A DNA stretch of 64,000 nt from Candidatus Eiseniibacteriota bacterium (GCA_034440375.1 JAWXBZ010000235.1:29563-93562); one strand, 5' to 3'. Positions 8,886 through 36,167 are shown, counted from the first letter of the stretch. Notes: generated from the sequence alone by a model not told the origin. Program-made: numbers and translations.

Positions 8886-9075
8886 AACAGAGCGAGATCA
8901 CTGTGGATCGTCATGCCGGTAGCAGGGGCGTGTCTGAAACAGCACTGGTTTCCGCGAAGTCGCCGAGGCGCGGATTCTGCGATGAGCGCCAATCACGAGG
9001 ACTACAACCAGCCCACGCCGAACCATGCTCAGACACAAGGAACGCCGGTCGTGTGGCCGCAGAGAGGTGAAGTCA

Positions 9076-10289
9076 TGAACAGGTACTCAACCACCGGGAC
9101 AGGCGACACTGAGATGCCAACCATGGATCTGAGCGAGCTCCAGGCTCACATCCGTGCCCTCATCACGTTGGAGGAGACTGACGCGCCGACGCTCAGTTGC
9201 TACCTGAGCGTGGGGGGGCCGGTCAACGACCCCCTGCCAGCGTTTGATCGGCGCGTGAACGCAGTCCGCAAGGTGCTCCGGCGGGAGGAACGCGAGCCCT
9301 TCGAGGAGGCACTCAACCACATCAAAAACTTTCTGGCCAATGAAGTGCATTCCGCCGCACAAGGCGTAGCGGTCTTCTCCCGGGCCGGGACGAGGCCCTT
9401 TTCCCTGGGACTGCAGTTTCAGGTGCCGCTTCCCGACCTGCTATTGGTTGACTCGACTCCAAACATCCACCACCTGGTCGAGCTCAAGGACACTTACCAC
9501 CGTTACGTCGTGCTCATCACCACCGAGAAGTGGGCGCGTATCCTCGAAGTCAACCTCGGCGCCATCACGGAAGAACTATGGACCGCGCGACCCGAGCTGC
9601 GCGAGCGGGTAGGCCGTGAGTGGACTCAGGAGCATTACCAGAACCACCGTCGCGATCGTGGCGAACGCTTCCTCAAGGAAAAGATCGAGGTTCTCGAGCA
9701 ACTCATGTCAGCCGGCGGACACACCCACCTGATCCTGGCGGGTAGCCCCCGTCTGACTGCGAGGGTACGCAACTGCCTCCCGAAACACATCGCCGCCAAG
9801 CTTGTGGACACCGTGTCGGCCTCAGCGAACGTTCGTGTAGACGATGTGGTCACTGCGACGCTGTCGAGTTTCGTCGAAGTGGAACAGGAGGAGTCGCTGA
9901 CCGCCGTGGCTCAGCTCGTCAGCAACCTGCGGCGCGGTGGTCTCGCTGTATCCGCTACCGGACCCACCCTCCTGGCCCTGCGACGCGGGCAGGCCGACGT
10001 CCTGGTCCTGGCCACGACATACGAACCGCCGCTCGGGGCAAGCTGCCGAGCCTGCGGGTGGATCGATGCTGTGTCCCGAATGCCCGCGGAATGCCCGGAG
10101 TGCACATCGGCCGAGCTCAGGGCCGTGAACCTCAAGGAGGCAATGGTCAAACTCGCGGTGGAACGATCCACCGAGGTCGAGTTCGTCCGGGACAGCGACA
10201 CCCTTATGGATCTCGGCGGTGTGGGTTGCCTGTTGCGATACGCGATGTCGAAGCAGGGCATGTGGGTTGGATCCGAAGAGGGCATGTGA
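9076..10289 (+). CDS. eRF1/Pelota-like (baeRF-type) protein with C-terminal Cys4 zinc ribbon; function unknown
   Basis: Three-part architecture with a central RNase H-like core (HRYVVLITTEKWARILEV...THLILAGSPRLTARV). C-terminal CRACGW...CPEC zinc ribbon. ATG 9076 is preceded by GAGAGGTG. Assignment is by motif resemblance only. Confidence 0.4.
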
Positions 10290-26093: not shown

Positions 26094-26789
26094 TCAATCC
26101 ACCAGTCGCGCGGACTGAATGTAGTCGAGCCTTGGAAAACCGTCGATCAAGTAGGCATTTCCTTCCGTCTGGATGCGTCCCTGGTCGGGGCCAAGCCCTC
26201 TTGGCATGCCCTCACCATACCCCTTGTAGAGTCGATCGACGACCTCCATGCCGATCGCCACCTGCCCGAACGGCGTGAAACCCTGAGAGTCGATCGCGGC
26301 GTTGTCCTTGAGGTTGATGAAGAGCTGGGTCGTTCGGCTGTCGGGCGCTCCTGTTTTGGAGAAGGTGATGTAGCCGCGCTTGTTGCTCTGCCGGTCGGCC
26401 CCCGCGGGCGTGTCATCCGGGATGGTGGCCTCTCGCCAGTGGCGCTGGATGATCGGGTCGCCGTTGATTCCGAACTGGGCCACGAAGTTTTCAATTACAC
26501 GGAAAAAACGGACATCGTCATAGTATCCGTGCTTCACCAGATTGTAAAAGCGATCGGCACCGCTCGGCGACCAGGCCCGGGTTACCAGGACGGTGAATCT
26601 CCCCTGGCTGGTCGTGACATGAACCGCGAAGATTGCCGGAGCCCGGTCGGTCAGCTGCGACGGATCGATCAACAGGCTCCGGTCGACCTTCATCGATTCG
26701 GTGGGGGAGTCCGACTGGCAGCCGAAGCCCGAGTTCATGCCAAGGACAAGCAGTAACAGAAGGGTGATCCCGCGCCGGCCGGGCAACAT
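26094..26789 (-). CDS. Cyclophilin-type PPIase, lipoprotein signal (paralog A)
   Basis: MLPGRRGITLLLLLVLGMNSGFGC signal. Cyclophilin core (RAWSPSGADRFYNLVKHGYYDDVRFFRVIENFVAQFGINGDP...FGQVAIGMEVVDRLYKGYGEG). TGATG overlap with the upstream gene. Confidence 0.85.
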   Translation of the reverse strand: MLPGRRGITLLLLLVLGMNSGFGCQSDSPTESMKVDRSLLIDPSQLTDRAPAIFAVHVTTSQGRFTVLVTRAWSPSGADRFYNLVKHGYYDDVRFFRVIENFVAQFGINGDPIIQRHWREATIPDDTPAGADRQSNKRGYITFSKTGAPDSRTTQLFINLKDNAAIDSQGFTPFGQVAIGMEVVDRLYKGYGEGMPRGLGPDQGRIQTEGNAYLIDGFPRLDYIQSARLVD

Positions 26790-27760
26790 CACCCCGGCGC
26801 GATGGCGTCCAGCGCCCGCTTCATTTCTGCGCGGATGGCAGCGTCCGCACCGGCGGGCCAGGCCGACGGATCGTCGCGGATGAAGGTGGTCAGGTCGTTT
26901 CGGTTGTCGAAACGGGTGACCGGGAGGTGATAGCTCTTGCCCCGCGTGTCGACCCGAACGGTACCCGGCTCGCCGCTCGTCTCGATCAGGTGCGCCATGT
27001 CGTCGGTGCCGTAGTCGCCGAGCATGACCTTGATGGGGACGCCGTGGTGAAGGATGGAGGCGTCGCCGTCGCGGCCGGGTTTGGCGCGCTCCTCGTTCTT
27101 GCGGCGCGATTCCTCGGGCGTGACCCAGATATAGAGAATGGCGGCCCGGCCGAGGATATGGTCCGACAGGCGCCCGAAGCTGTACTGATACCCGTACGGC
27201 GGGGTCAGCGGCATCGAGGAATTCTGGGGGCCGCCGCGCGCAAATTCGATGACGATCGTCCTCCCCTCGAGCGAATCGGGTATGCCGGCCATTTTGTCGT
27301 TCAAGAGTTGTCGCGCCTCGGGTTCCAGCGCGGACTCGAGACGCTTCCGCAACTCCGGGGGCAGCTTGCCGAGTGCCGGTTCCGCCCCGACCTTGATGCG
27401 AGCCGCGTCCAGTCGGTCCAGCAGCCACCCGGCGGCGGATGGCGGGTTGATCGCGGGCCTGGCGTGGAGGTCCTCGTAGTCCTCGTTAATCAGCTCGATC
27501 AACGTACCCCAGTCGAGCGACTCCTGAAACGGCTCCAGCCCCGATGGAAAGAAGATTGGGTCGTGGCCGGCGTGAGTCAGTTCCTCCGAGATGCGCCGCA
27601 TCATGTGGACGTACGGGTAGTCGTCGAGCTGGACCGTTTCGCCCATGTGAAAATCCCGCGACTGGGACACAAAGTCCTGCATCGCCAGCCACCGCCGGAC
27701 CTCGGACTTACCCGAGGCCGGCAGGGCTGTCAGCAGCAATGTGTCGAAATTTCGACTCAC
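26789..27760 (-). CDS. P-loop protein with 6-phosphofructo-2-kinase-like Walker A (ALPASGKS); predicted kinase, function unknown
   Basis: N-terminal LLLTALPASGKSEVRRWL resembles the 6PF2K/AAA_33 P-loop (GLPARGKT). No other motifs recognised. Translationally coupled to the downstream cyclophilin. Confidence 0.35.
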   Translation of the reverse strand: MSRNFDTLLLTALPASGKSEVRRWLAMQDFVSQSRDFHMGETVQLDDYPYVHMMRRISEELTHAGHDPIFFPSGLEPFQESLDWGTLIELINEDYEDLHARPAINPPSAAGWLLDRLDAARIKVGAEPALGKLPPELRKRLESALEPEARQLLNDKMAGIPDSLEGRTIVIEFARGGPQNSSMPLTPPYGYQYSFGRLSDHILGRAAILYIWVTPEESRRKNEERAKPGRDGDASILHHGVPIKVMLGDYGTDDMAHLIETSGEPGTVRVDTRGKSYHLPVTRFDNRNDLTTFIRDDPSAWPAGADAAIRAEMKRALDAIAPG

Positions 27761-27786: not shown

Positions 27787-28503
27787 CTACTTTGAGATGC
27801 GAGCGGTTTTGATGTAGTCCATCTTCGGGAAGTCCTTGTTCAGGTAGGCATTCCCTTCCGCCTGGAGGCGTCCCTGATCGGGGCCCTGGCCGCGCGGTGC
27901 ACCTTCGCCATATCCCTTGTAGAGCTTGTCGACGACTTCCATGCCGCTGGTCACCTGCCCGAACGGCGTGAAACCCTGCGAGTCGAGCATGGAGTTGTCC
28001 TTGAAGTTGATGAAGAGCTGTGTGGAGCGGCTGTCGGGAGCGCCGGTCTTGGCGAAGGTCAGGAAACCACGCTTGTTGCTCTGCTTGTTCGGCGCGGTCG
28101 GGGCGTCATCCTTGATGCTGGCCTCGCGCCAATGTCCCTGGAGGGTCGGGTCGCCGTTGATGCCAAACTGGGCCATGAAGTTCTCGATGACACGGAAAAA
28201 GCGGATATCGTCGTAGAAGCCGTTCTTCACCAGGTTGTAGAAACGGTCGGCGCCGTTGGGCGACCAGGCCCTTGTTACGGAAACGGTGAAATTGCCCTGG
28301 CTGGTGACGAAATCGGCCTTGAAGGTGGCCGGGGCCTGCTCGCTGCACTTCGATGGATCCGTCAGCATGCTCTTGTCGATCTCCTTGGACTTCGAGGTCT
28401 TCGGCTGGGAAGCCGGGGGTGCGGCCGCGTAGGTCACGCAGGCAGCCGTGACGAGCAGGGCGGTTGACAGCGCGAGCCGGGTGGCGAATCGAATACGGGA
28501 CAT
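27787..28503 (-). CDS. Cyclophilin-type PPIase, Sec signal (paralog B, about 75% identical to paralog A)
   Basis: GAGGAG lies 7 nt before ATG 28503. Signal MSRIRFATRLALSTALLVTAACVTYAAA. Core RAWSPNGADRFYNLVKNGFYDDIRFFRVIENFMAQFGINGDP...FGQVTSGMEVVDKLYKGYGEG. Confidence 0.85.
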   Translation of the reverse strand: MSRIRFATRLALSTALLVTAACVTYAAAPPASQPKTSKSKEIDKSMLTDPSKCSEQAPATFKADFVTSQGNFTVSVTRAWSPNGADRFYNLVKNGFYDDIRFFRVIENFMAQFGINGDPTLQGHWREASIKDDAPTAPNKQSNKRGFLTFAKTGAPDSRSTQLFINFKDNSMLDSQGFTPFGQVTSGMEVVDKLYKGYGEGAPRGQGPDQGRLQAEGNAYLNKDFPKMDYIKTARISK

Positions 28504-28652
28504 CGGCATACTCCTCGGCCAAATGGCCGGATAGGGAAATTGTTGGACGAGACGAAGCCGGGGAAGACTACCCCAGCGTGCGGTCCGGTGGTACCCCCTG
28601 GAGCCCCGAAAGGTTTCGGGCAAACGTCGGTTTCGGGAGGCCCCGGGAGCGA

Positions 28653-29234
28653 TCAGCCGGTCCTGGGGGGCATGGCGTCGAGGAGCGCTCGAAAGTCGAC
28701 CCGGCCGCGATTTCTGGCCTGCAGGACGTCCGCCAGCGCCGTCGAGAGGCCGGTCGCGCCGGACTTGTCCGACACGTGGACAGTCGGGGTGGAAGGCGTA
28801 AGAATCACCCCGGCCCCCACACGGGCGCCGGCCTCATCGCGGCACCGGACAAGCCGTCCGGGGGCGCGCCCCTCACAGGCCAGGAAGAGTCCGGCGTCGG
28901 GTTCGTAGCCGTCTGGAACGGTCATGCGCAGCGAAAAGCTCAGGATGGAAGCCGCTTCGAGCCACGCGTGCAGGTCCGGCGTAGCCGGACCGACCCAGGC
29001 CACGGTCAGGTCCTCGAGAGAGTGGCCATCCTGGCGCAACTGGTGAAGTGATCGAAGCACACTCCACGACTCGTCGCTGAGCCGATGGCTGGCAGTTGTC
29101 ACTTCGGCGTCCGACACCGCCGGGTCGAGGTGACGCGGTGCGCCTCCGTCGAGTTCGTCGGCGCGATCGAACAGGCCGAGAATCTCCTCGCGAGAAAAAT
29201 CGGCCAGGCAGAGCTCAAGGCTGGATCGGGTCAT
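28653..29234 (-). pseudogene. argF: Ornithine carbamoyltransferase (ArgF)-derived ORF with a roughly 110-residue internal deletion; lacks the STRTR carbamoyl-phosphate motif and the HCLP motif, so it is a degenerate/pseudo-enzyme
   Basis: N-terminus SLELCLADFSREEILGLFDRADEL matches OTCase (FLSFMDYSPEELIGLIRRGSEL). Segment LTVAWVGPATPDLHAWLEAASILSFSLRMTVPDGYEPDAGLF matches [41 protein letters not shown]. Only 193 aa, where OTCases are about 310 aa. It sits at the end of the arg operon. Confidence 0.6.
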
Positions 29235-29259: not shown

Positions 29260-31272
29260 TCAGAGCGAAATGGCGTCGGCATCGACTGAAATCGGCCGTC
29301 TCGCCGGTGGAATCGGAAGCTCCCAGTGCTGTGGGGCGGCGTCGGCCCTGGCCGTGGCTCCGGGAACCAGGTCGAGGACGACGGCTGTTTCATCGCAGGC
29401 ATGGCGACGTGGGCAGTGAATGCAGTCGGTCCACACTTTTCGCGGCAACGACTCGCGCGTCACGATGCGAAAGCCGCAACGCTCGAAAAACGCCACCTCC
29501 CGCGTCAGGGCGATGACACGCTCGAGCCCGATTGGTCGGGCATCCTCCACGACCTCTGCCACCAGCATCCGGCCGAGACCCAGGCCCTGGGCGTCGCTCC
29601 GGATGGCCAGCGAACGGACCTCGCCCAGGTCGTCCCACAGGACACGCAGGGCACAGCAACCGACCACCTCACCGTTCCGTTCGGCCACGTGGAATTCGCG
29701 CACCGACTGGTACAGCTCTCCGACTGGCCTCGGCAAGAGTGTTCCGTCTGCGATGTGTCCCGACATGAGCCGCGAGATGGCCGGGACGTCGGTGGGGAGG
29801 GCCCGGCGGAGCCTGATATTGGCCGCCAGGGCCGGCGGTGATTGCGCGGAAGGCGTGTCGGTTTCAGCCGGCGCCGACGCGGTCATTTGAACAGGCGTCA
29901 CGCCGAGGCGTTCTGCGTGCCGCGCAAGCTGCCTCGCCACCGATTCCGGACCTCCGCCCGGCGTGGCGTTGCGACGAACAACGGCCGCTTCATGATCGAG
30001 CGTGGCCAGCGTGGCGTCGTTGAAGTGGGGCGAGATCGACAACCGCTCCGCGGATGGCAGTTGGGAGGGGGCCACCCGGGCCGCCTCAGCCGCCAGCCAC
30101 AGCCGGCCGACGGCCGAATGCGCCTCCCGAAACGGCAGGCCCCGCCCGACGAGAAGATCGGCCAGTTCGACGGCCAGGAGGTCGTCACCGAGGCCTTCGC
30201 GGATCCGATCAGGCCGAGGCGCCAATGCCTCGATCGCGGCCGGCAGGACGCCGAGCAGTGCTTCGAGCGTGGCCGCTGTGTCGAAAATGGCCTCCTTGTC
30301 TTCCTGCAGATCCTTTTGATAGCTCGACGGCAGTCCCTTCAGCACAATGGCCAGCCGGCTGGCATTGGCGATCAGTCGCCCGGACTTGCCCCGTGCCAGT
30401 TCGAAGAGATCCGGATTGCGCTTCTGCGGCAGGAGGCTCGACCCGGTCGAAAAGCCATCGGGCGGTGCGTACCAGCCAAAGCCGGGCGAGCACCAGAGGA
30501 CCAGGTCCTCGGCCATGCGACTCAGATGAACCGCCAGCGTCGAGGCGGCACCGAGGTAGTCGAGCGCAAAGTCGCGATCTCCCACGGCGTCGACGGAATT
30601 GTCGGCGGCGCGGGTGAAACCGAGCCGGCGGCTCAGGGCACCTCGATCGTAGACCAGCGGTGTGCCCGCCACGGCGCCGGCACCGAGCGGCATCCGGTCG
30701 GCCGACTCGCGGGCGGCGCGGAAACGATCCTCATCGCGGAGGAACGCCTCGACATGCGCCAGCCAGAGGTGTGCCAGGCGGACGGGCTGCGCGGGCTGCA
30801 GGTGGGTCTGGGCCGCCGCATTGAGATTGCCGGCCAGTACGGCCTGGTGAAGCAACGCGCGGGCAAGCTCCTGAAGACCCGCGACGGTATCGTCGCAGAG
30901 GCGGAGAACCCGCAGGCGGACCAGCGTGACGACCTGATCGTTGCGGCTTCTTCCGGTATGGATTTTCAGTCCGGCGTCGCCGGCCCGGCGGACCAGCTCC
31001 GCTTCGATCGCCGAGTGGATGTCCTCCCCGACTAGCGTCTGCCGGCCCGATTCCAGATCGGCCTGGATGTCGAGCACCGCGCGATTCAATGCCGCACACT
31101 CGGAGGAGGAGAGAATTCCCGCCTCGACCAGCGAGTCGGCATAGGCCCGGGCCAGTGCCAGCTCTTCCGGCCAGAGCACCCGGTCGATCGGCAGGGACTC
31201 GTTCAGCGCCTGCGCCCGCGGGTCGAGCCCGCCGAGGCGCCCCGCCCAGAGGCGGTGGTCAGTCGTTGCCAT
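29260..31272 (-). CDS. argH: Argininosuccinate lyase fused to a C-terminal GNAT N-acetyltransferase domain (ArgH(A)-type bifunctional protein)
   Basis: ASL N-terminus MATTDHRLWAGRLGG...ALNESL and fumarate-lyase signature. C-terminal about 170 aa is GNAT (IRLRRALPTDVPAISRLM...RSLAIRSDAQGLGLGRMLV). ATG at 31272. Confidence 0.8.
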   Translation of the reverse strand: MATTDHRLWAGRLGGLDPRAQALNESLPIDRVLWPEELALARAYADSLVEAGILSSSECAALNRAVLDIQADLESGRQTLVGEDIHSAIEAELVRRAGDAGLKIHTGRSRNDQVVTLVRLRVLRLCDDTVAGLQELARALLHQAVLAGNLNAAAQTHLQPAQPVRLAHLWLAHVEAFLRDEDRFRAARESADRMPLGAGAVAGTPLVYDRGALSRRLGFTRAADNSVDAVGDRDFALDYLGAASTLAVHLSRMAEDLVLWCSPGFGWYAPPDGFSTGSSLLPQKRNPDLFELARGKSGRLIANASRLAIVLKGLPSSYQKDLQEDKEAIFDTAATLEALLGVLPAAIEALAPRPDRIREGLGDDLLAVELADLLVGRGLPFREAHSAVGRLWLAAEAARVAPSQLPSAERLSISPHFNDATLATLDHEAAVVRRNATPGGGPESVARQLARHAERLGVTPVQMTASAPAETDTPSAQSPPALAANIRLRRALPTDVPAISRLMSGHIADGTLLPRPVGELYQSVREFHVAERNGEVVGCCALRVLWDDLGEVRSLAIRSDAQGLGLGRMLVAEVVEDARPIGLERVIALTREVAFFERCGFRIVTRESLPRKVWTDCIHCPRRHACDETAVVLDLVPGATARADAAPQHWELPIPPARRPISVDADAISL

Positions 31273-32572
31273 GAAGGACGACCTCCGCCGTTTCGGTGTG
31301 GATACTGGACATGGATTCATCGGGTGTGTTCCCGGGGATCGATTTCATCAAGGCCGGGGCGACATCCCCGTGCCGCACCTGGCGCGACGTGGCCACCATC
31401 GGCAACCCGAAGAGGCGGATGAAACCCTCGGCATCCTTTGGACGATAGCCCGCCATGTCGAAGGAGGCGAGCGCATTGTCGTAGAGCGAATTAGGACTGG
31501 TGCGGGCCACGGCACGGACCTGCCCCTGGTGAAACTCGAGCGTGACCGTGCCCGCCGCGACCGACATCGCTTCGTCAAAGAATGCCGACAGTGAGCGGCG
31601 GAGCGGCGAAAACCAGAGTCCGTTATAAATGAGGTCGGCCAGCGTGAGGGCCATCGTTGCTCGCGTCCGATGGAGATCGTGTGGAAGCACGAGACGGGCC
31701 AGATCTTCGAGCGCCTCGTGGAGCGCCGTTCCAGCCGGCGTCTCGTACACCCCACGGGACTTCATGCCGACCAGCCGACTCTCGACGAGATCGGCCCGGC
31801 CGACGCCGTGACGTCCGGCGAGAAGGTTGAGTTGCTCGACCAGCGGGACGGGATCGAGCCGTGCGCCGTCGAGAGCCACCGGAATGCCCGCCTCGAACGT
31901 GACATCGATCGTGTCGGGAAGTGATGGACGTTGGGCCGTAGCCGCCGTCAACCGGTAGAGCGATTCGGGTGCCGGGTTGGCCGGATCCTCGAGCAGGCCC
32001 CCCTCGTGGCTCATGTGCCACAGGTTGGCATCACGCGAGTAGAGATCGGCGGTTGTCTGCTTGACCGGGATATCGTGCCGCGCCGCGTAGGCGAGCGCTT
32101 CCTCACGCGATGAAATATCCCATTCGCGCCAGGGGGCGATGATCGGAAGCTCGGGCGCAAGGGCCATGGCGGTCAGCTCGAAGCGGACCTGATCGTTCCC
32201 CTTGCCGGTGCACCCGTGGGCCAGGGCATCGCAACCGGTGGCACGGGCCGCGGCGACCTGCCGCTCGGCGATCAGGGGACGCGCGAGCGCGGTGCCAAGA
32301 AGGTAGCGCCCCTCGTACAACGCGCCCGCCTTGAGGGCAGGGAACACGTAGTCGGTCAGGAATGGCCGGCGCAGGTCCTCGAGAATCACCTGGTCGGCAC
32401 CGATGCGGCGAGCCCGATCATGGAGGTCGGAGAGTTCATCCCCCTGGCCCAGGTCGGCGCAGAAGGCCACGACCTGGCAGCCGTACTTTTCCTTGAGCCA
32501 GGGGACGATGATGCTGGTGTCGAGTCCGCCCGAATAGGCCAGGGCCACACGGCGGTAGGTGTGTGCAGTCAT
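31259..32572 (-). CDS. argG: Argininosuccinate synthase
   Basis: VALAYSGGLDTSIIVPWLKE PP-loop. Full-length ArgG homology. Confidence 0.9.
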   Translation of the reverse strand: MTAHTYRRVALAYSGGLDTSIIVPWLKEKYGCQVVAFCADLGQGDELSDLHDRARRIGADQVILEDLRRPFLTDYVFPALKAGALYEGRYLLGTALARPLIAERQVAAARATGCDALAHGCTGKGNDQVRFELTAMALAPELPIIAPWREWDISSREEALAYAARHDIPVKQTTADLYSRDANLWHMSHEGGLLEDPANPAPESLYRLTAATAQRPSLPDTIDVTFEAGIPVALDGARLDPVPLVEQLNLLAGRHGVGRADLVESRLVGMKSRGVYETPAGTALHEALEDLARLVLPHDLHRTRATMALTLADLIYNGLWFSPLRRSLSAFFDEAMSVAAGTVTLEFHQGQVRAVARTSPNSLYDNALASFDMAGYRPKDAEGFIRLFGLPMVATSRQVRHGDVAPALMKSIPGNTPDESMSSIHTETAEVVLHGND

Positions 32573-34599
32573 GAGCGACCTCCCAAACTTTCCGAGACCG
32601 GCGACAGCCGGCCGAGCGCCCTGCCCAACCGGGCAAGAGCATCGTCAATATCAGCAACAGCAACATTCAGCGGCGGAAGCACCCGAACGCTCCAGCTTCC
32701 CGCCTTGCACAACAACAGCCCCTCGTCACGACAGGCGCCAACCAGCGCGGCCGGATCGAATCCCGCCGATTCGTCGATCTCGATAGCCCGAAGGAGGCCC
32801 AATCCGCGCGAGGCGGTCAGCGCGTCAAAACTTGCCACCAGTCGCTCGAGGCCGGCCGCGAGATACACGCCGCGCTCGGCGATGTTGTTCAGAAATCCGG
32901 GTCGGCTGATCGTGTCGAGCAGGTAGCCGGCCGCGGCGGCCGCGACGGGATTGCCGCCGAACGTCGTTCCGTGCTGGCCGGGTTCCAGGAGTCCCGCCAG
33001 TTCGTTGCGAATCAGGACGGCGCCGATCGGAATGCCGCCGCCCAGCCCCTTGGCCAGAATCGTGATGTCCGCCTGAACGCCGGCCTGTTCAGCCGCCAGG
33101 AATGTGCCGGAACGGCCGGCACCGCATTGGACTTCGTCGAAAAGCAGCAGCGCGCGATTCTCCGTCGTGCGACGACGAAGGTGATGCAGGAACGACGAGT
33201 CCGCCACGCGCGCTCCCGCCTCGCCCTGAACCGGTTCGATCAGCACGGCGTCGAGGGGTTTTCCTTCGGCCTCGATTTCGGAAAGAAGCGCATCGAACGC
33301 CGCGGGGTCATTGAACGGCGCGAACCGGACTCCCGGGACCAGGGGCTCGAATGGCTCGCGGTAGGCCGGCGTGGCCGTGGCCGACAGGGCGAAGGCCGTC
33401 CGCCCGTGGAAGGAGCCATCAAAGGCGACAATGACCCCGCTGTTCCGGCCGGCGGTCCGCGCGTGAAGTCGTGCGAACTTGAGGGCGGCCTCGTTTGCTT
33501 CCGTGCCCGAGTTGCACAGAAAGACCCGGTCATAGCCGGTGAGGGCTACGAGGCGTTCGGCCAGTTCGATGGCCGGCCGATTGCCGAACAGGTTCGACAC
33601 GTGAACCAGTCGATCCATCTGGCGGCAGACCGCCACCCGGAGGCCACGGTCGGCGTGACCGAGTGTGTTCACCGCGATGCCACTGACGAAATCGAGGTAC
33701 TCCCGTCCGTCCGCGTCGACGACCCGGCATCCCGAACCGTGAGACAGTTCGAGTCGGGGCAGGGGATAAACGGCGGCAAACAGATCCGACTCCGTCACCG
33801 TCGTGGCATCGATTCCGGCGCCCGTTGCCAGGAGCCGGGTCAGATCGCCAATCGATGTCCAGGTGGAGATGATGGCCTGACGAACACCCGCCTCGACCGA
33901 TTGACATGCCGCTCCGAGCTTCGGCTTCATGCCACCGGTCACCTCGATGTGTGACAGGAGCCGCTGGGCCTGATCCAGGTTGATCGTTCCCACCGGTCTG
34001 GATTCGATGGTGACTGCCGGGACATCCGACAAAAAGAGGATCGTGTCGGCGCCGAGGGCCACAGCGACGGCCGCCGCGGCCTCGTCGGCGTTGATGTTCC
34101 AGACACCTCCAGCCCGATCCATCCCGATGGTCGAGAGGACCGGCACCCGGCCCGTGGCCATGAGATCTTCCAGCAGGCCGGTGCTGACGTTCGATACGTG
34201 TCCGACATGACCCAGGCGGGCGGCATGCGGGTGGGGCTCGGCTTCCAGCGTGCGGGCGTCGATTCCGGAAAGCCCCACGGCCTCGACACCCCCCGCGAGC
34301 AGGCCCGCCACCAGGCGACTGTTGACGAGGCCCGTCAGGACCGCCGTAGCCACATCGAGAACAGCCTCATCCGTCACACGAAGACCATCCTCAAAGCGGC
34401 TATCCAGCTTGAGGTTATCGCACCAGCTATTGACGTCCTTGCCCCCGCCGTGGACCAGCACAATGGGACGACTCAGTGACGCCAGATCGGCGGCGAAATC
34501 GGCCATGCCGGTCGAATCCTCAAGCGCCCGCCCGCCGAGCTTGATCACCAGCGGTGTGGTGGATGACGCCGTCGGGGCGTCGCCAAGAATGCGCGTCAC
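32569..34599 (-). CDS. argB/argD: Fused acetylglutamate kinase (ArgB, N-terminal about 270 aa) - acetylornithine aminotransferase (ArgD, C-terminal about 400 aa) in one continuous frame
   Basis: ArgB motifs (LVIKLGGRAL...VLVHGGG...ADEAAAAVAVALGADTILFLSDVPAV). These run directly into the ArgD N-terminus (DLFAAVYPLPRLELSHGSGCRVVDADGREYLDFVSGIAVNTLGH), with the ArgD PLP-lysine region further on. Start is a GTG at 34599 overlapping the argC TGA (GTGA). Confidence 0.75.
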   Translation of the reverse strand: MTRILGDAPTASSTTPLVIKLGGRALEDSTGMADFAADLASLSRPIVLVHGGGKDVNSWCDNLKLDSRFEDGLRVTDEAVLDVATAVLTGLVNSRLVAGLLAGGVEAVGLSGIDARTLEAEPHPHAARLGHVGHVSNVSTGLLEDLMATGRVPVLSTIGMDRAGGVWNINADEAAAAVAVALGADTILFLSDVPAVTIESRPVGTINLDQAQRLLSHIEVTGGMKPKLGAACQSVEAGVRQAIISTWTSIGDLTRLLATGAGIDATTVTESDLFAAVYPLPRLELSHGSGCRVVDADGREYLDFVSGIAVNTLGHADRGLRVAVCRQMDRLVHVSNLFGNRPAIELAERLVALTGYDRVFLCNSGTEANEAALKFARLHARTAGRNSGVIVAFDGSFHGRTAFALSATATPAYREPFEPLVPGVRFAPFNDPAAFDALLSEIEAEGKPLDAVLIEPVQGEAGARVADSSFLHHLRRRTTENRALLLFDEVQCGAGRSGTFLAAEQAGVQADITILAKGLGGGIPIGAVLIRNELAGLLEPGQHGTTFGGNPVAAAAAGYLLDTISRPGFLNNIAERGVYLAAGLERLVASFDALTASRGLGLLRAIEIDESAGFDPAALVGACRDEGLLLCKAGSWSVRVLPPLNVAVADIDDALARLGRALGRLSPVSESLGGRS

Positions 34600-35633
34600 C
34601 ACGCGCGGGCTTCCAGGTCGAGGCCGGTGGCTTCGGGCCAGCCGGTCATGAGGTTCAAGTTCTGAATGGCCTGACCCGCGGCCCCCTTCACCAGGTTGTC
34701 GATGGCGGCCGTGGCCAGAAGAGTCCTTCCGCAATGAACGGTCGTGACGGCGACCTGGACCTGGTTGGTGCCATGGACGGCCCGGGTGTCCGGCCACTCG
34801 CCGGCCGGAAGGACCGTGACAAAGGATTCGTCGGCATACCGCTCGATATAACGCTCCCGGGCCAGGGTCTCATGGATTGGCTGCGACAGCGGCGTTGACA
34901 CCGTTGCCAGGATCCCTCGCGACATCGGCACGAGCTGCGGGGCGAACGCCACGGACGGCGTGGTGTTGGCGCCATAGCTCGCGAAGTTTCGTGTCATCTC
35001 CGACACATGTGAGTGGATCTCGCCGACCTTGTAAAAGGAGGCGCTTCCGGCGAGTTCCGCGAAGGAGTTGCTCAACACGGCGCGGCGACCGGCCCCGGTG
35101 ACGCCGGAAAGGGCTGACACCATGACCGCTCCGGTCACCCATCCCGCCTCCACCGCCGGCAGGAGAGCCAGCGTCGCGGCGGTTGGGTAACAGCCGGGAT
35201 TGGCCACGCGGGGCGTGAGGTGTAACCGGGCCCGATTTTTTTCCGTCAGCCCGTAGACGAAGCCCATGGATTCGTCCCTCCAGTCGGCCGACAGGTCGAG
35301 AATTCTTGTCGGGGCCTCAATCCAGGCCGGATTTCCCGCGACCAGTCCGGCCAGCGCTCCATGGGGGAGCGCGCTGACCAGCGTGTCGCAGGTGCCGCGA
35401 CCCAGCAGATCGGCAATCGCTTCCAACGAGATGATCGCTGGAAACTGGCTGGCCTCGCCCCGACCGGTGTCGAAACCGGGGGCCAGACAGCTTGCCGGCT
35501 GCCCGGCCCATTCGCGCGAGGCAAGAGCCGTGATGGTGATCCCGGGATGTCGGCGGGCCAGCCGAAGAAATTCCAGGCCGGCATATCCACTGGCCCCAAG
35601 CAGGGCCACTCGCGCCATGATCGGCGCCGTCAA
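34596..35633 (-). CDS. argC: N-acetyl-gamma-glutamyl-phosphate reductase
   Basis: MARVALLGASGYAGLEFLRLARRHPGI N-terminal NAD-binding region. Catalytic-Cys region (ANPGCYPTAATLAL). Confidence 0.9.
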   Translation of the reverse strand: MTAPIMARVALLGASGYAGLEFLRLARRHPGITITALASREWAGQPASCLAPGFDTGRGEASQFPAIISLEAIADLLGRGTCDTLVSALPHGALAGLVAGNPAWIEAPTRILDLSADWRDESMGFVYGLTEKNRARLHLTPRVANPGCYPTAATLALLPAVEAGWVTGAVMVSALSGVTGAGRRAVLSNSFAELAGSASFYKVGEIHSHVSEMTRNFASYGANTTPSVAFAPQLVPMSRGILATVSTPLSQPIHETLARERYIERYADESFVTVLPAGEWPDTRAVHGTNQVQVAVTTVHCGRTLLATAAIDNLVKGAAGQAIQNLNLMTGWPEATGLDLEARAW

Positions 35634-36130
35634 CGGGCAAGGCTCGATCCGGCGTCGGCCAGGGATTCGAGTTGACGACGGAAGGCCCGCGCGCGGGCCG
35701 CACTGGGTGTGACGACGAGTATGGTGTCGTCCCCGGCCACCGAACCAACCACATCGGTGCTGCAGAGGAGGTCGATCGCGCGGGCGACGCCGTTGGCGTG
35801 ACCAGGTGGGGTGCGGACGATGAGCAGTTGTCCCGCCAGCCGGATTTCGTTGATGAACGACTTGAGATCAAGTTCCTGCCGGTGGCGGTCGACGACCTCG
35901 GTGGCCGGTGACGGGAGTGAGTAGACTGCGCGCCCGTCACGACCCGGCAACTTGCCCACGCCTAAGCTGGCCAGGTCGCGGGACAGCGTGGCCTGGGTGA
36001 CCTGTATGCCGTGACGGCCAAGCGCGGACACGAGTTCCTCCTGGCTGCCGTGCCGTCCATCGGCGATCAGGCGGGCCAGCGGGGCTCGACGTCGTGCCGG
36101 GCCGCGGGGGGCGTGTGCATTAATATTCAT
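35630..36130 (-). CDS. argR: Arginine repressor ArgR
   Basis: Winged-helix region SQEELVSALGRHGIQVTQATLSRDLASLGV. C-terminal oligomerisation domain. ATG at 36130 (MNINAH...). First gene of the arg operon. Confidence 0.85.
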   Translation of the reverse strand: MNINAHAPRGPARRRAPLARLIADGRHGSQEELVSALGRHGIQVTQATLSRDLASLGVGKLPGRDGRAVYSLPSPATEVVDRHRQELDLKSFINEIRLAGQLLIVRTPPGHANGVARAIDLLCSTDVVGSVAGDDTILVVTPSAARARAFRRQLESLADAGSSLAR

Positions 36131-36133
36131 CGA

Positions 36134-36167
36134 TGTGAATAAAAACACAAAACCACTGAAAGTTTCA
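36134..36167. promoter_or_regulatory. AT-rich putative ARG-box operator/promoter region immediately upstream of the argR start
   Basis: A locally AT-rich stretch in a 67% GC genome. It contains TGTGAATAAAAACACA (36134-36149) and the palindrome TGAAAGTTTCA (36157-36167), both resembling TGAAT-N-ATTCA ARG-box half-sites. Confidence 0.35.

Follow-up and report, generated by a model that had tools for sequence, protein, structure and literature searches.

We analyzed a 64,000-nucleotide stretch of DNA (the window) from a Candidatus Eiseniibacteriota bacterium (GCA_034440375.1, JAWXBZ010000235.1:29563-93562), whose arginine biosynthesis operon encodes acetylglutamate kinase (ArgB) and acetylornithine aminotransferase (ArgD) in a single reading frame, argB::argD. 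The preliminary description of this locus had proposed such a fusion from the sequence alone, and its central claim is borne out: one frame holds two complete domains, the same or a near-identical protein is found in three sources (JGI, NCBI/Logan, and ENA), and the fusion is kept, in the same operon, in relatives that share 57-78% identity with it. The gene is a real and heritable translational fusion that likely yields one bifunctional enzyme of ~72 kDa with N-acetylglutamate kinase (NAGK; step 2) and N-acetylornithine aminotransferase (step 4) activities of the acetylated arginine pathway.

A single conserved reading frame encodes ArgB and ArgD

The fused gene lies on the minus strand at 32569-34602 and ends in a TGA stop (32571..32569), within a frame that is open from 34797 to 32569 with no internal stop. 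Because this one frame carries two complete, high-scoring domains, it is not a chance open frame of a GC-rich genome. The product is 677 amino acids long if translated from a GTG at 34602 and 676 amino acids from a GTG at 34599; the two codons stand in tandem at the end of argC, which reads GTG-GTG-A (34602..34596). The start is probably the GTG at 34602, because relatives read ATG-GTG-ACG at the same position and an identical database protein, MDZ4806358.1, has 677 amino acids and begins MVTR. The GTG start overlapping the argC stop, as first described, is thus real as an overlap, but with translation from 34602 it probably spans 7 nucleotides (nt) rather than 4. At the other end, the stop of the fused gene shares the letters ATGA (32569..32572) with the start of argG. 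With stop and start overlaps at both ends, argC, argB::argD, and argG are therefore all coupled by overlaps.

The identical protein, MDZ4806358.1, is named ‘acetylglutamate kinase’ at NCBI and comes from a 96.8-kb contig of Candidatus Eisenbacteria bacterium. The same 90%-identity cluster holds an ENA protein that is 94.5% identical, with 37 differing positions and the same short junction, ...GAGIDATAPTESDLF.... An in-frame fusion is likewise present in every one of seven more distant relatives (P0002-P0008; 57-78% identity), which come from JGI, NCBI, and Logan assemblies. Where their genomic context is available (contigs L081 and L083 and the contig of P0004), the operon runs tadA-like deaminase, hypothetical gene, argR, argC, argB::argD, argG, and an argH fused to an acetyltransferase domain (argH-GNAT). 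In codon comparisons of the window gene with those of L083 and L081, the ratio of nonsynonymous to synonymous substitution rates (dN/dS) is 0.22-0.34 in the ArgB half and lies between 0.14 and 0.22 in the ArgD half, with dS at about 0.9-1.1. Since dN/dS is low in both halves at a dS near 1, the fusion has persisted through long divergence under purifying selection.

A short tether joins the two domains

An AlphaFold2 model of the monomer has a mean predicted local distance difference test (pLDDT) score of 89.5, with values below 50 only at residues 261-266 and in the C-terminal tail. The first of these regions falls in the inter-domain linker, ..LATGAGIDATTVTE.. (33790-33825, minus strand; about residues 259-270), which occupies the place where argB once stopped and where the Shine-Dalgarno site and ATG of argD once stood. 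The join had initially been thought to have no linker, which does not hold, as about 8-12 residues separate the last ArgB helix from the first ArgD helix. This linker is nevertheless the shortest of its clade, in which relatives have up to about 28 extra residues. Both its length and its sequence vary among relatives, and its proportion of nonsynonymous differences (pN) is 0.42-0.60 in the codon comparisons with L083 and L081. As modeled, the linker is a short, disordered, and poorly conserved tether between intact domains.

Such a tether bears on whether the gene makes one protein or two. ArgD could also, or mainly, arise by internal initiation at an in-frame GTG that begins the peptide VTESD, 5 codons before the ArgD core, or the full-length chain could be cleaved after translation; a disordered linker would be accessible to proteases, and the fungal ArgB-ArgC precursor ARG5,6 is indeed processed. 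However, the GTG is preceded by no Shine-Dalgarno-like motif, and the 94.5%-identical sibling carries a proline codon in its place (ATAPTESD), observations that rule it out as a conserved internal start and defeat the initiation scenario that the preliminary description had kept in view. The L083 gene has no start codon near its junction, and none occurs among the 50 codons examined at the junction of L089. The strong Shine-Dalgarno sites of unfused relatives (see below) have been lost, and we find no conserved cleavage motif in a linker that is unconserved in sequence and length. Production of two separate proteins from this frame, by cleavage or by weak initiation at some non-canonical site, thus appears quite unlikely, and one chain of 72 kDa is the default expectation.

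Both halves retain the features of their enzyme families

The ArgB (N-acetylglutamate kinase) domain occupies residues 17-244 (33868-34551, minus strand). It matches Pfam AA_kinase (PF00696) across that interval with an E-value of 3.9e-43 (148 bits against a cut-off of 24.9, profile positions 3-232 of 234) and NCBIfam argB (TIGR00761) with 206.1 bits over model positions 2-231 of 231, 55 bits above the equivalog-domain cut-off of 151.3. The family motifs KxGG, HGGG, GLRVT, NxNAD, and GGMxxK appear in the translation as VIKLGG, VHGGG, GLRVT, NINAD, and GGMKPK, and are retained in the fused relatives; the roles of these residues are known from work on E. coli NAGK. Most of this half is modeled with a pLDDT above 90. 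Based on the family cut-off and the motifs, the ArgB half is predicted to phosphorylate N-acetylglutamate.

Hexameric, arginine-inhibited NAGKs are recognized by an N-terminal helix of ~25-40 residues before the first strand, with the consensus ..ALPY..F.GK..VIKYGG. The window protein has 16-17 residues before VIKLGG, no ALPY-type motif, and no N-terminal helix in the model. The sequences nearest to the ArgB half are the NAGKs of plants and cyanobacteria, in which the match begins at chain residues 39-59. This starting point and the short N-terminus lacking ALPY..GK suggest, in light of established structural work on NAGK, a kinase of the dimeric, arginine-insensitive type.

The ArgD (N-acetylornithine aminotransferase) domain spans residues 284-662 (32614-33750, minus strand) and matches Pfam Aminotran_3 (PF00202) over that interval with an E-value of 3.9e-106 (355.6 bits against a cut-off of 30.5, profile positions 12-403 of 403). 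It passes NCBIfam argD (TIGR00707) narrowly, with 414.5 bits against 410.05, and stays below the cut-off of the equivalog model NF002874 (406.8 against 457). The motifs SGTEANE, FHGRT, and FDEVQCG are present, as is the pyridoxal phosphate (PLP) lysine in LAKGLGGG; K517, D488/E489/Q491, G365/E367, and H398/G399/R400 are invariant or at least 90% conserved in an alignment of 52 sequences. In a Foldseek comparison, this half superimposes on Thermotoga maritima ArgD (2e54) with a template modeling score (TM-score) of 0.96 normalized to the target and a root-mean-square deviation of 1.6 Å. The operon context of argR, argC, argG, and argH supports the assignment as N-acetylornithine aminotransferase, and we predict that the ArgD half transaminates N-acetylglutamate semialdehyde.

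One of the halves might instead be a non-catalytic regulatory or scaffold domain, comparable to the kinase-like domain of classical N-acetylglutamate synthase (NAGS), whose amino-acid-kinase domain is inactive in mammals (PMC1865377). The ArgB half is the faster-evolving of the two, both in dN/dS (above) and in identity within the clade (57-73% versus 73-81% for the ArgD half), and the ArgD score barely exceeds the TIGR00707 cut-off. Against this, the catalytic motifs are kept in both halves, the ArgB half scores far above its own equivalog-domain cut-off, and no other argB or argD is found within the operon or anywhere else in the 64-kb window. Loss of activity in either half would, on this evidence, be very unlikely.

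The fusion arose from overlapping argB and argD genes

Judged by ArgD, the unfused relatives that come closest are P0009, on contig L082, and P0010, on contig L088. L082 carries argR-argC-argB-argD-argG-argH-GNAT, the same operon in unfused form; on L088, a 2-kb contig, the argB-argD pair alone is visible. On either contig, argB runs past the argD ATG to a stop 19-20 nt downstream of it in a different frame, and the ATG is preceded by GGGAGG or GGAGG, so that by sequence these genes are a classic translationally coupled pair. Compared with them, the window protein lacks the last ~14 ArgB residues and the stop, the Shine-Dalgarno site, the ATG, and about 23 residues of the ArgD leader. The erased stop/start junction of two coupled genes that had been suggested earlier is therefore recognizable: the stop, Shine-Dalgarno site, and ATG seen in L082 and L088 are absent from the fused genes.

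The nearest unfused ArgD proteins are 60-63% identical to the corresponding half of the window protein; for the other half, identity to the unfused L082 ArgB is 45%. This L082 protein is also the best match of the ArgB half outside its clade, with 185 bits versus at most 150 bits for the fusions of other lineages. A neighbor-joining tree of ArgD domains places the fused clade P0001-P0006 within a set of about 100 unfused ArgD sequences, the named members of which are Eisenbacteria or Eiseniibacteriota; the tree is a rough one, built from Kimura distances with no support values, and its unfused sequences are the best hits to this query only. The synteny shared with unfused L082, the nesting in the ArgD tree, and the L082 ArgB as best match indicate that the fusion arose in place. 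Its ancestor in the Eisenbacteria-like lineage would have been an operon of the order argC-argB-argD, with argB and argD lying in different frames and sharing ~20 nt. A deletion that spanned the junction would then have removed the argB tail and stop together with the argD Shine-Dalgarno site, ATG, and leader, joining the two frames.

In the same rough tree, fused P0007 (L089) groups with unfused P0009 (L082), and unfused P0010 is sister to the fused P0001-P0006. Such a topology would call for two separate fusions in this one lineage, or for one fusion that was later split; it may also be an artifact of the tree.

The comparison with unfused genes also bears on whether the fusion is an artifact of sequencing or assembly, in which an indel of 1-2 nt or a chimeric join at the argB/argD boundary merged two ordinary genes. 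The source is a metagenome contig, and adjacent or overlapping argB and argD genes are common enough that a single indel could mimic a fusion. Yet the junctions of unfused and fused genes differ by dozens of lost codons rather than by one base, and in seven relatives of greater divergence the frames are joined as well, by linkers of differing length. The junction is repeated in other assemblies, in the identical NCBI/Logan protein and the 94.5%-identical ENA protein, so no error at this site, a scenario the preliminary description had allowed for, needs to be supposed. Considering also the purifying selection on both halves across a dS near 1, we regard an artifact as extremely unlikely.

ArgB::ArgD fusions are rare but recur in several lineages

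A homolog search of 1.84 billion cluster representatives returned 3,505 hits at E <1e-30, of which we inspected the best 150 (50%-identity clusters). Both halves occur in one chain in about 29 of these 150, some of them sighted repeatedly (P0122 with 42 members, P0127 on 9 contigs, and the marine Chloroflexota protein P0014 on 6 contigs). argB::argD comes immediately after argC in all four lineages examined for context (the Eisenbacteria-like clade, TARA/Chloroflexota, P0082, and P0069); the other operon genes differ among the four. Identity between lineages is 35-48%. The fusions are spread over about 25 clades of the rough ArgD tree, a number that is an upper-end guess as a count of independent clades. 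Several independent origins of ArgB::ArgD are very likely from these sequences, and what can be stated firmly is that at least four lineages carry it in different contexts and that the clade described here is nested among unfused relatives.

A scan of GTDB representative genomes gave 27 loci matching both halves, all of them separate adjacent argB and argD genes, in different frames or with a stop between; the scan recovered no Eisenbacteria genome and so describes background adjacency only. Adjacency of argB and argD is common and their fusion rare. Full-text searches of open-access papers found none on an ArgB-ArgD fusion, and no single chain in the PDB, whether matched by sequence or by fold, spans the two domains. 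Database names for the fused proteins are ‘acetylglutamate kinase’ or ‘acetylornithine aminotransferase’ alone. The ArgB::ArgD arrangement thus appears to be undescribed, in agreement with the initial judgment that it is not a standard one. It is rare, and it also extends beyond this contig to several lineages in public databases, where it has gone unremarked.

Four of the fused proteins (P0122, P0130, P0135, and P0146) carry the long ALPY..GK..VIKYGG N-terminus, which rules out the idea that only the short, dimeric ArgB type tolerates fusion. On the marine contigs L084 (TARA) and L085 (JGI), the Chloroflexota fusion (L084, 7001-8977) is followed by a free GNAT gene (8979-9506; 175 amino acids), argG, argJ, and an unfused argH. 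The GNAT protein is probably a short NAGS, and the marine Chloroflexota operon contains the same domains as that of the window, partitioned differently. Longer representatives include P0148 (839 amino acids), P0202 (721), P0262 (763), and P0240 (651). P0148 continues for about 180 residues past the ArgD domain, and in several long proteins the ArgD domain is extended by something other than ArgB, which may point to further kinds of ArgD fusion.

The arg operon and neighboring genes

All genes of the cluster lie on the minus strand. The first is argR (arginine repressor; 35630-36148; Pfam Arg_repressor and Arg_repressor_C), which holds the same position in L081, L082, and the P0004 contig. It is followed by argC (N-acetyl-gamma-glutamyl-phosphate reductase; 34596-35633; Semialdhyde_dh and Semialdhyde_dhC_1), whose TGA overlaps the start of the fused gene, and, beyond argB::argD, by argG (argininosuccinate synthase; 31259-32572; Arginosuc_synth and Arginosuc_syn_C), whose ATG overlaps its stop. 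The last gene (29260-31320) encodes ArgH with a C-terminal GNAT acetyltransferase domain of the ArgH(A) type (Lyase_1 at residues 33-316, ASL_C2 at 381-447, and Acetyltransf_1 at 542-617). It probably begins at the ATG at 31272, because a start at the ATG at 31320 would overlap argG by 62 nt, compared to 11-14 nt in relatives. The same architecture, with 671-679 amino acids, is found in L082, L083, and the P0004 contig; by sequence, argH-GNAT is the second fusion of the operon.

The makeup of this operon and the family scores together exclude one further reading of the protein, as a pair acting on lysine or ornithine intermediates bound to the carrier protein LysW instead of N-acetyl arginine intermediates. 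LysZ and LysJ are homologs of ArgB and ArgD, and LysJ models do match the protein, but with 251.9 bits (LysJ_Th_th) and 236.7 bits (LysJ_Sulfobales) against cut-offs of 700, whereas the argB and argD models pass theirs. The operon consists instead of argR, argC, argG, and argH with a GNAT of the short NAGS type (PMC1382215), and no LysX/ArgX-type ligase is among its genes (a very small lysW open reading frame was not specifically searched for), so that we attach a negligible probability to a LysZ-LysJ-like pair and rule it out.

No argJ (ornithine acetyltransferase), argE (deacetylase), or argF (carbamoyltransferase) adjoins the operon in the window (29260-36148 and 28653-29234), and a promoter and terminator scan of the operon returned nothing on the coding strand. 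In unfused L082, an OTCase gene follows argH-GNAT. In the window, argH-GNAT is followed by an open reading frame of 193 amino acids (28653-29234, minus strand) with no Pfam hit, whose position is kept in the P0004 contig (198 amino acids). Further downstream of the arg operon are two tandem genes for cyclophilin-type peptidyl-prolyl isomerases (26094-27428 and 27787-28623, minus strand; 444 and 278 amino acids) with long N-terminal extensions; a Pro_isomerase gene stands at the same position in the P0004 contig.

A predicted bifunctional enzyme for steps 2 and 4

If translated as one chain, ArgB::ArgD would supply its two activities in a fixed 1:1 ratio, with no need for re-initiation at argD. 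Since the parent enzymes both occur as homodimers or higher oligomers, the fusion would probably assemble as ArgB2-ArgD2 or a bigger complex, bringing steps 2 and 4 into one particle. ArgC, which catalyzes step 3 and is encoded by the gene that overlaps the fused start, may dock onto this assembly, so that the labile N-acetylglutamyl phosphate and the reactive semialdehyde would be kept local. Substrate channeling that involves ArgC would be plausible.

Besides the possibility of two products weighed above, several points tell against a single functional enzyme or against a benefit from it. The predicted template modeling score (pTM) of the AlphaFold2 monomer is 0.70, which leaves the mutual orientation of the domains undefined. 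With so short a linker, the ArgB and ArgD dimer interfaces may not be able to form simultaneously. Direct channeling from ArgB to ArgD is impossible without ArgC, because steps 2 and 4 are not consecutive. A stand-alone argB or argD could possibly lie elsewhere in the genome, beyond the 64-kb window. Even inside the phylum the fusion is rare, with about 100 unfused versus about 8 fused sequences among the best hits, and such rarity suits a tolerated, near-neutral accident of gene overlap equally well as an adaptive fusion.

The biology is otherwise ordinary: ArgB::ArgD joins two well-known enzymes with intact chemistry, and nothing in the mechanism is surprising. Fusion of genes from the same pathway ranks with the best predictors of physical or functional coupling that sequence alone provides. 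A conserved fusion of steps 2 and 4 that passes over the reductase, in an operon with an ArgH-GNAT fusion as well, suggests that the early acetylated steps may form a complex in bacteria, and it offers a natural construct for testing this. One could go further and take the repeated, independent fusion directly downstream of argC, in four lineages or more and perhaps as many as two dozen, as a ‘Rosetta-stone’ sign that bacterial ArgB, ArgC, and ArgD normally form a metabolon protecting N-acetylglutamyl phosphate and N-acetylglutamate semialdehyde, with the scaffold hard-wired here. We put this forward tentatively, as a conjecture that is more likely wrong than right; if it were true, ArgB::ArgD would be a naturally tethered system for the direct measurement of channeling in the acetylated arginine pathway. 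Pathway engineers may also find two activities of fixed stoichiometry in a compact 72-kDa protein of interest. The fusion also matters for annotation: pipelines label only one of the two functions, and reconstructions from metagenome-assembled genomes (MAGs) of Eisenbacteria and marine Chloroflexota can wrongly report argD or argB as missing.

Comparison with known arginine-pathway enzymes

The nearest point of reference is the stand-alone ArgB and ArgD pair encoded by adjacent or overlapping genes, as in the argC-argB-argD order of Clostridia, Fusobacteria, Verrucomicrobia, and the unfused Eisenbacteria-like contigs; this pair shares domains, gene order, operon, and predicted chemistry with the window gene. 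It differs in being made as two chains, whereas the window gene lacks the intergenic stop, the Shine-Dalgarno site, the start, and about 30 residues from the end of ArgB and the leader of ArgD.

The fusions of other lineages (marine Chloroflexota MBH28422.1 and TARA contigs, Clostridia MAG protein MBX6351263.1, and metagenome clusters) have the same domain order, are 596-839 amino acids long, and follow argC where the context is seen. They are 35-48% identical to the window protein, with linkers of roughly 10-115 residues, and their operons contain argJ and a separate GNAT gene with an unfused argH. Some of them also begin with the long N-terminal helix of hexameric, arginine-sensitive kinases, which the window protein lacks. 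The other lineages most likely represent independent fusion events.

The described arginine fusions join steps 1 and 2 (NAGS-K), 2 and 3 (ARG5,6), or 8 and 1 (ArgH(A)); here steps 2 and 4 are joined and the reductase is skipped. ARG5,6 is an ArgB-ArgC polyprotein that is cleaved after import, and P5CS is the ProB-ProA fusion of plants and animals. Like the window protein, both fuse an amino-acid kinase that makes a labile acyl phosphate to an enzyme of the same pathway, with stoichiometry and the handling of an unstable intermediate as the presumed benefit. They join consecutive steps, kinase and reductase, whereas the window protein joins steps 2 and 4 and leaves ArgC separate and translationally coupled. 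In addition, ARG5,6 is cleaved, and we see no sign suggesting cleavage of the window protein. Fungal ARG5,6 and a yeast NAGS/NAGK metabolon are both cited in PMC1865377.

Bacterial precedents exist as well. NAGS-K (ArgA-ArgB) of Xanthomonadales is a bifunctional fusion with an active ArgB-type kinase domain (PMC1865377), and it resembles the window protein in combining such a kinase with a second activity of the arginine pathway. The partner in NAGS-K is a C-terminal acetyltransferase, which links steps 1 and 2, whereas in the window it is a PLP aminotransferase, which links steps 2 and 4. ArgH(A), an argininosuccinate lyase fused to a short NAGS, is, according to its 2006 description, restricted to marine Alteromonas- and Vibrio-like gammaproteobacteria; it complements a NAGS mutant, and its authors explain fusion within a tightly overlapping operon by co-regulation (PMC1382215). 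Like argB::argD, it joins enzymes of arginine steps that do not follow one another, within an arg operon of tightly overlapping genes, and an argH-GNAT of just this architecture stands two genes downstream of the fusion described here. The domains of ArgH(A) are others, and its activity is demonstrated by complementation, whereas ArgB::ArgD is known here as a sequence. In the window protein the partner of the kinase is a class-III aminotransferase, as opposed to the DUF619/GNAT domain of NAGS-K, the reductase of ARG5,6, and the lyase and GNAT of ArgH(A). Judged by its domain makeup, ArgB::ArgD resembles all three as a fusion of enzymes from the same pathway, and is a member of none.

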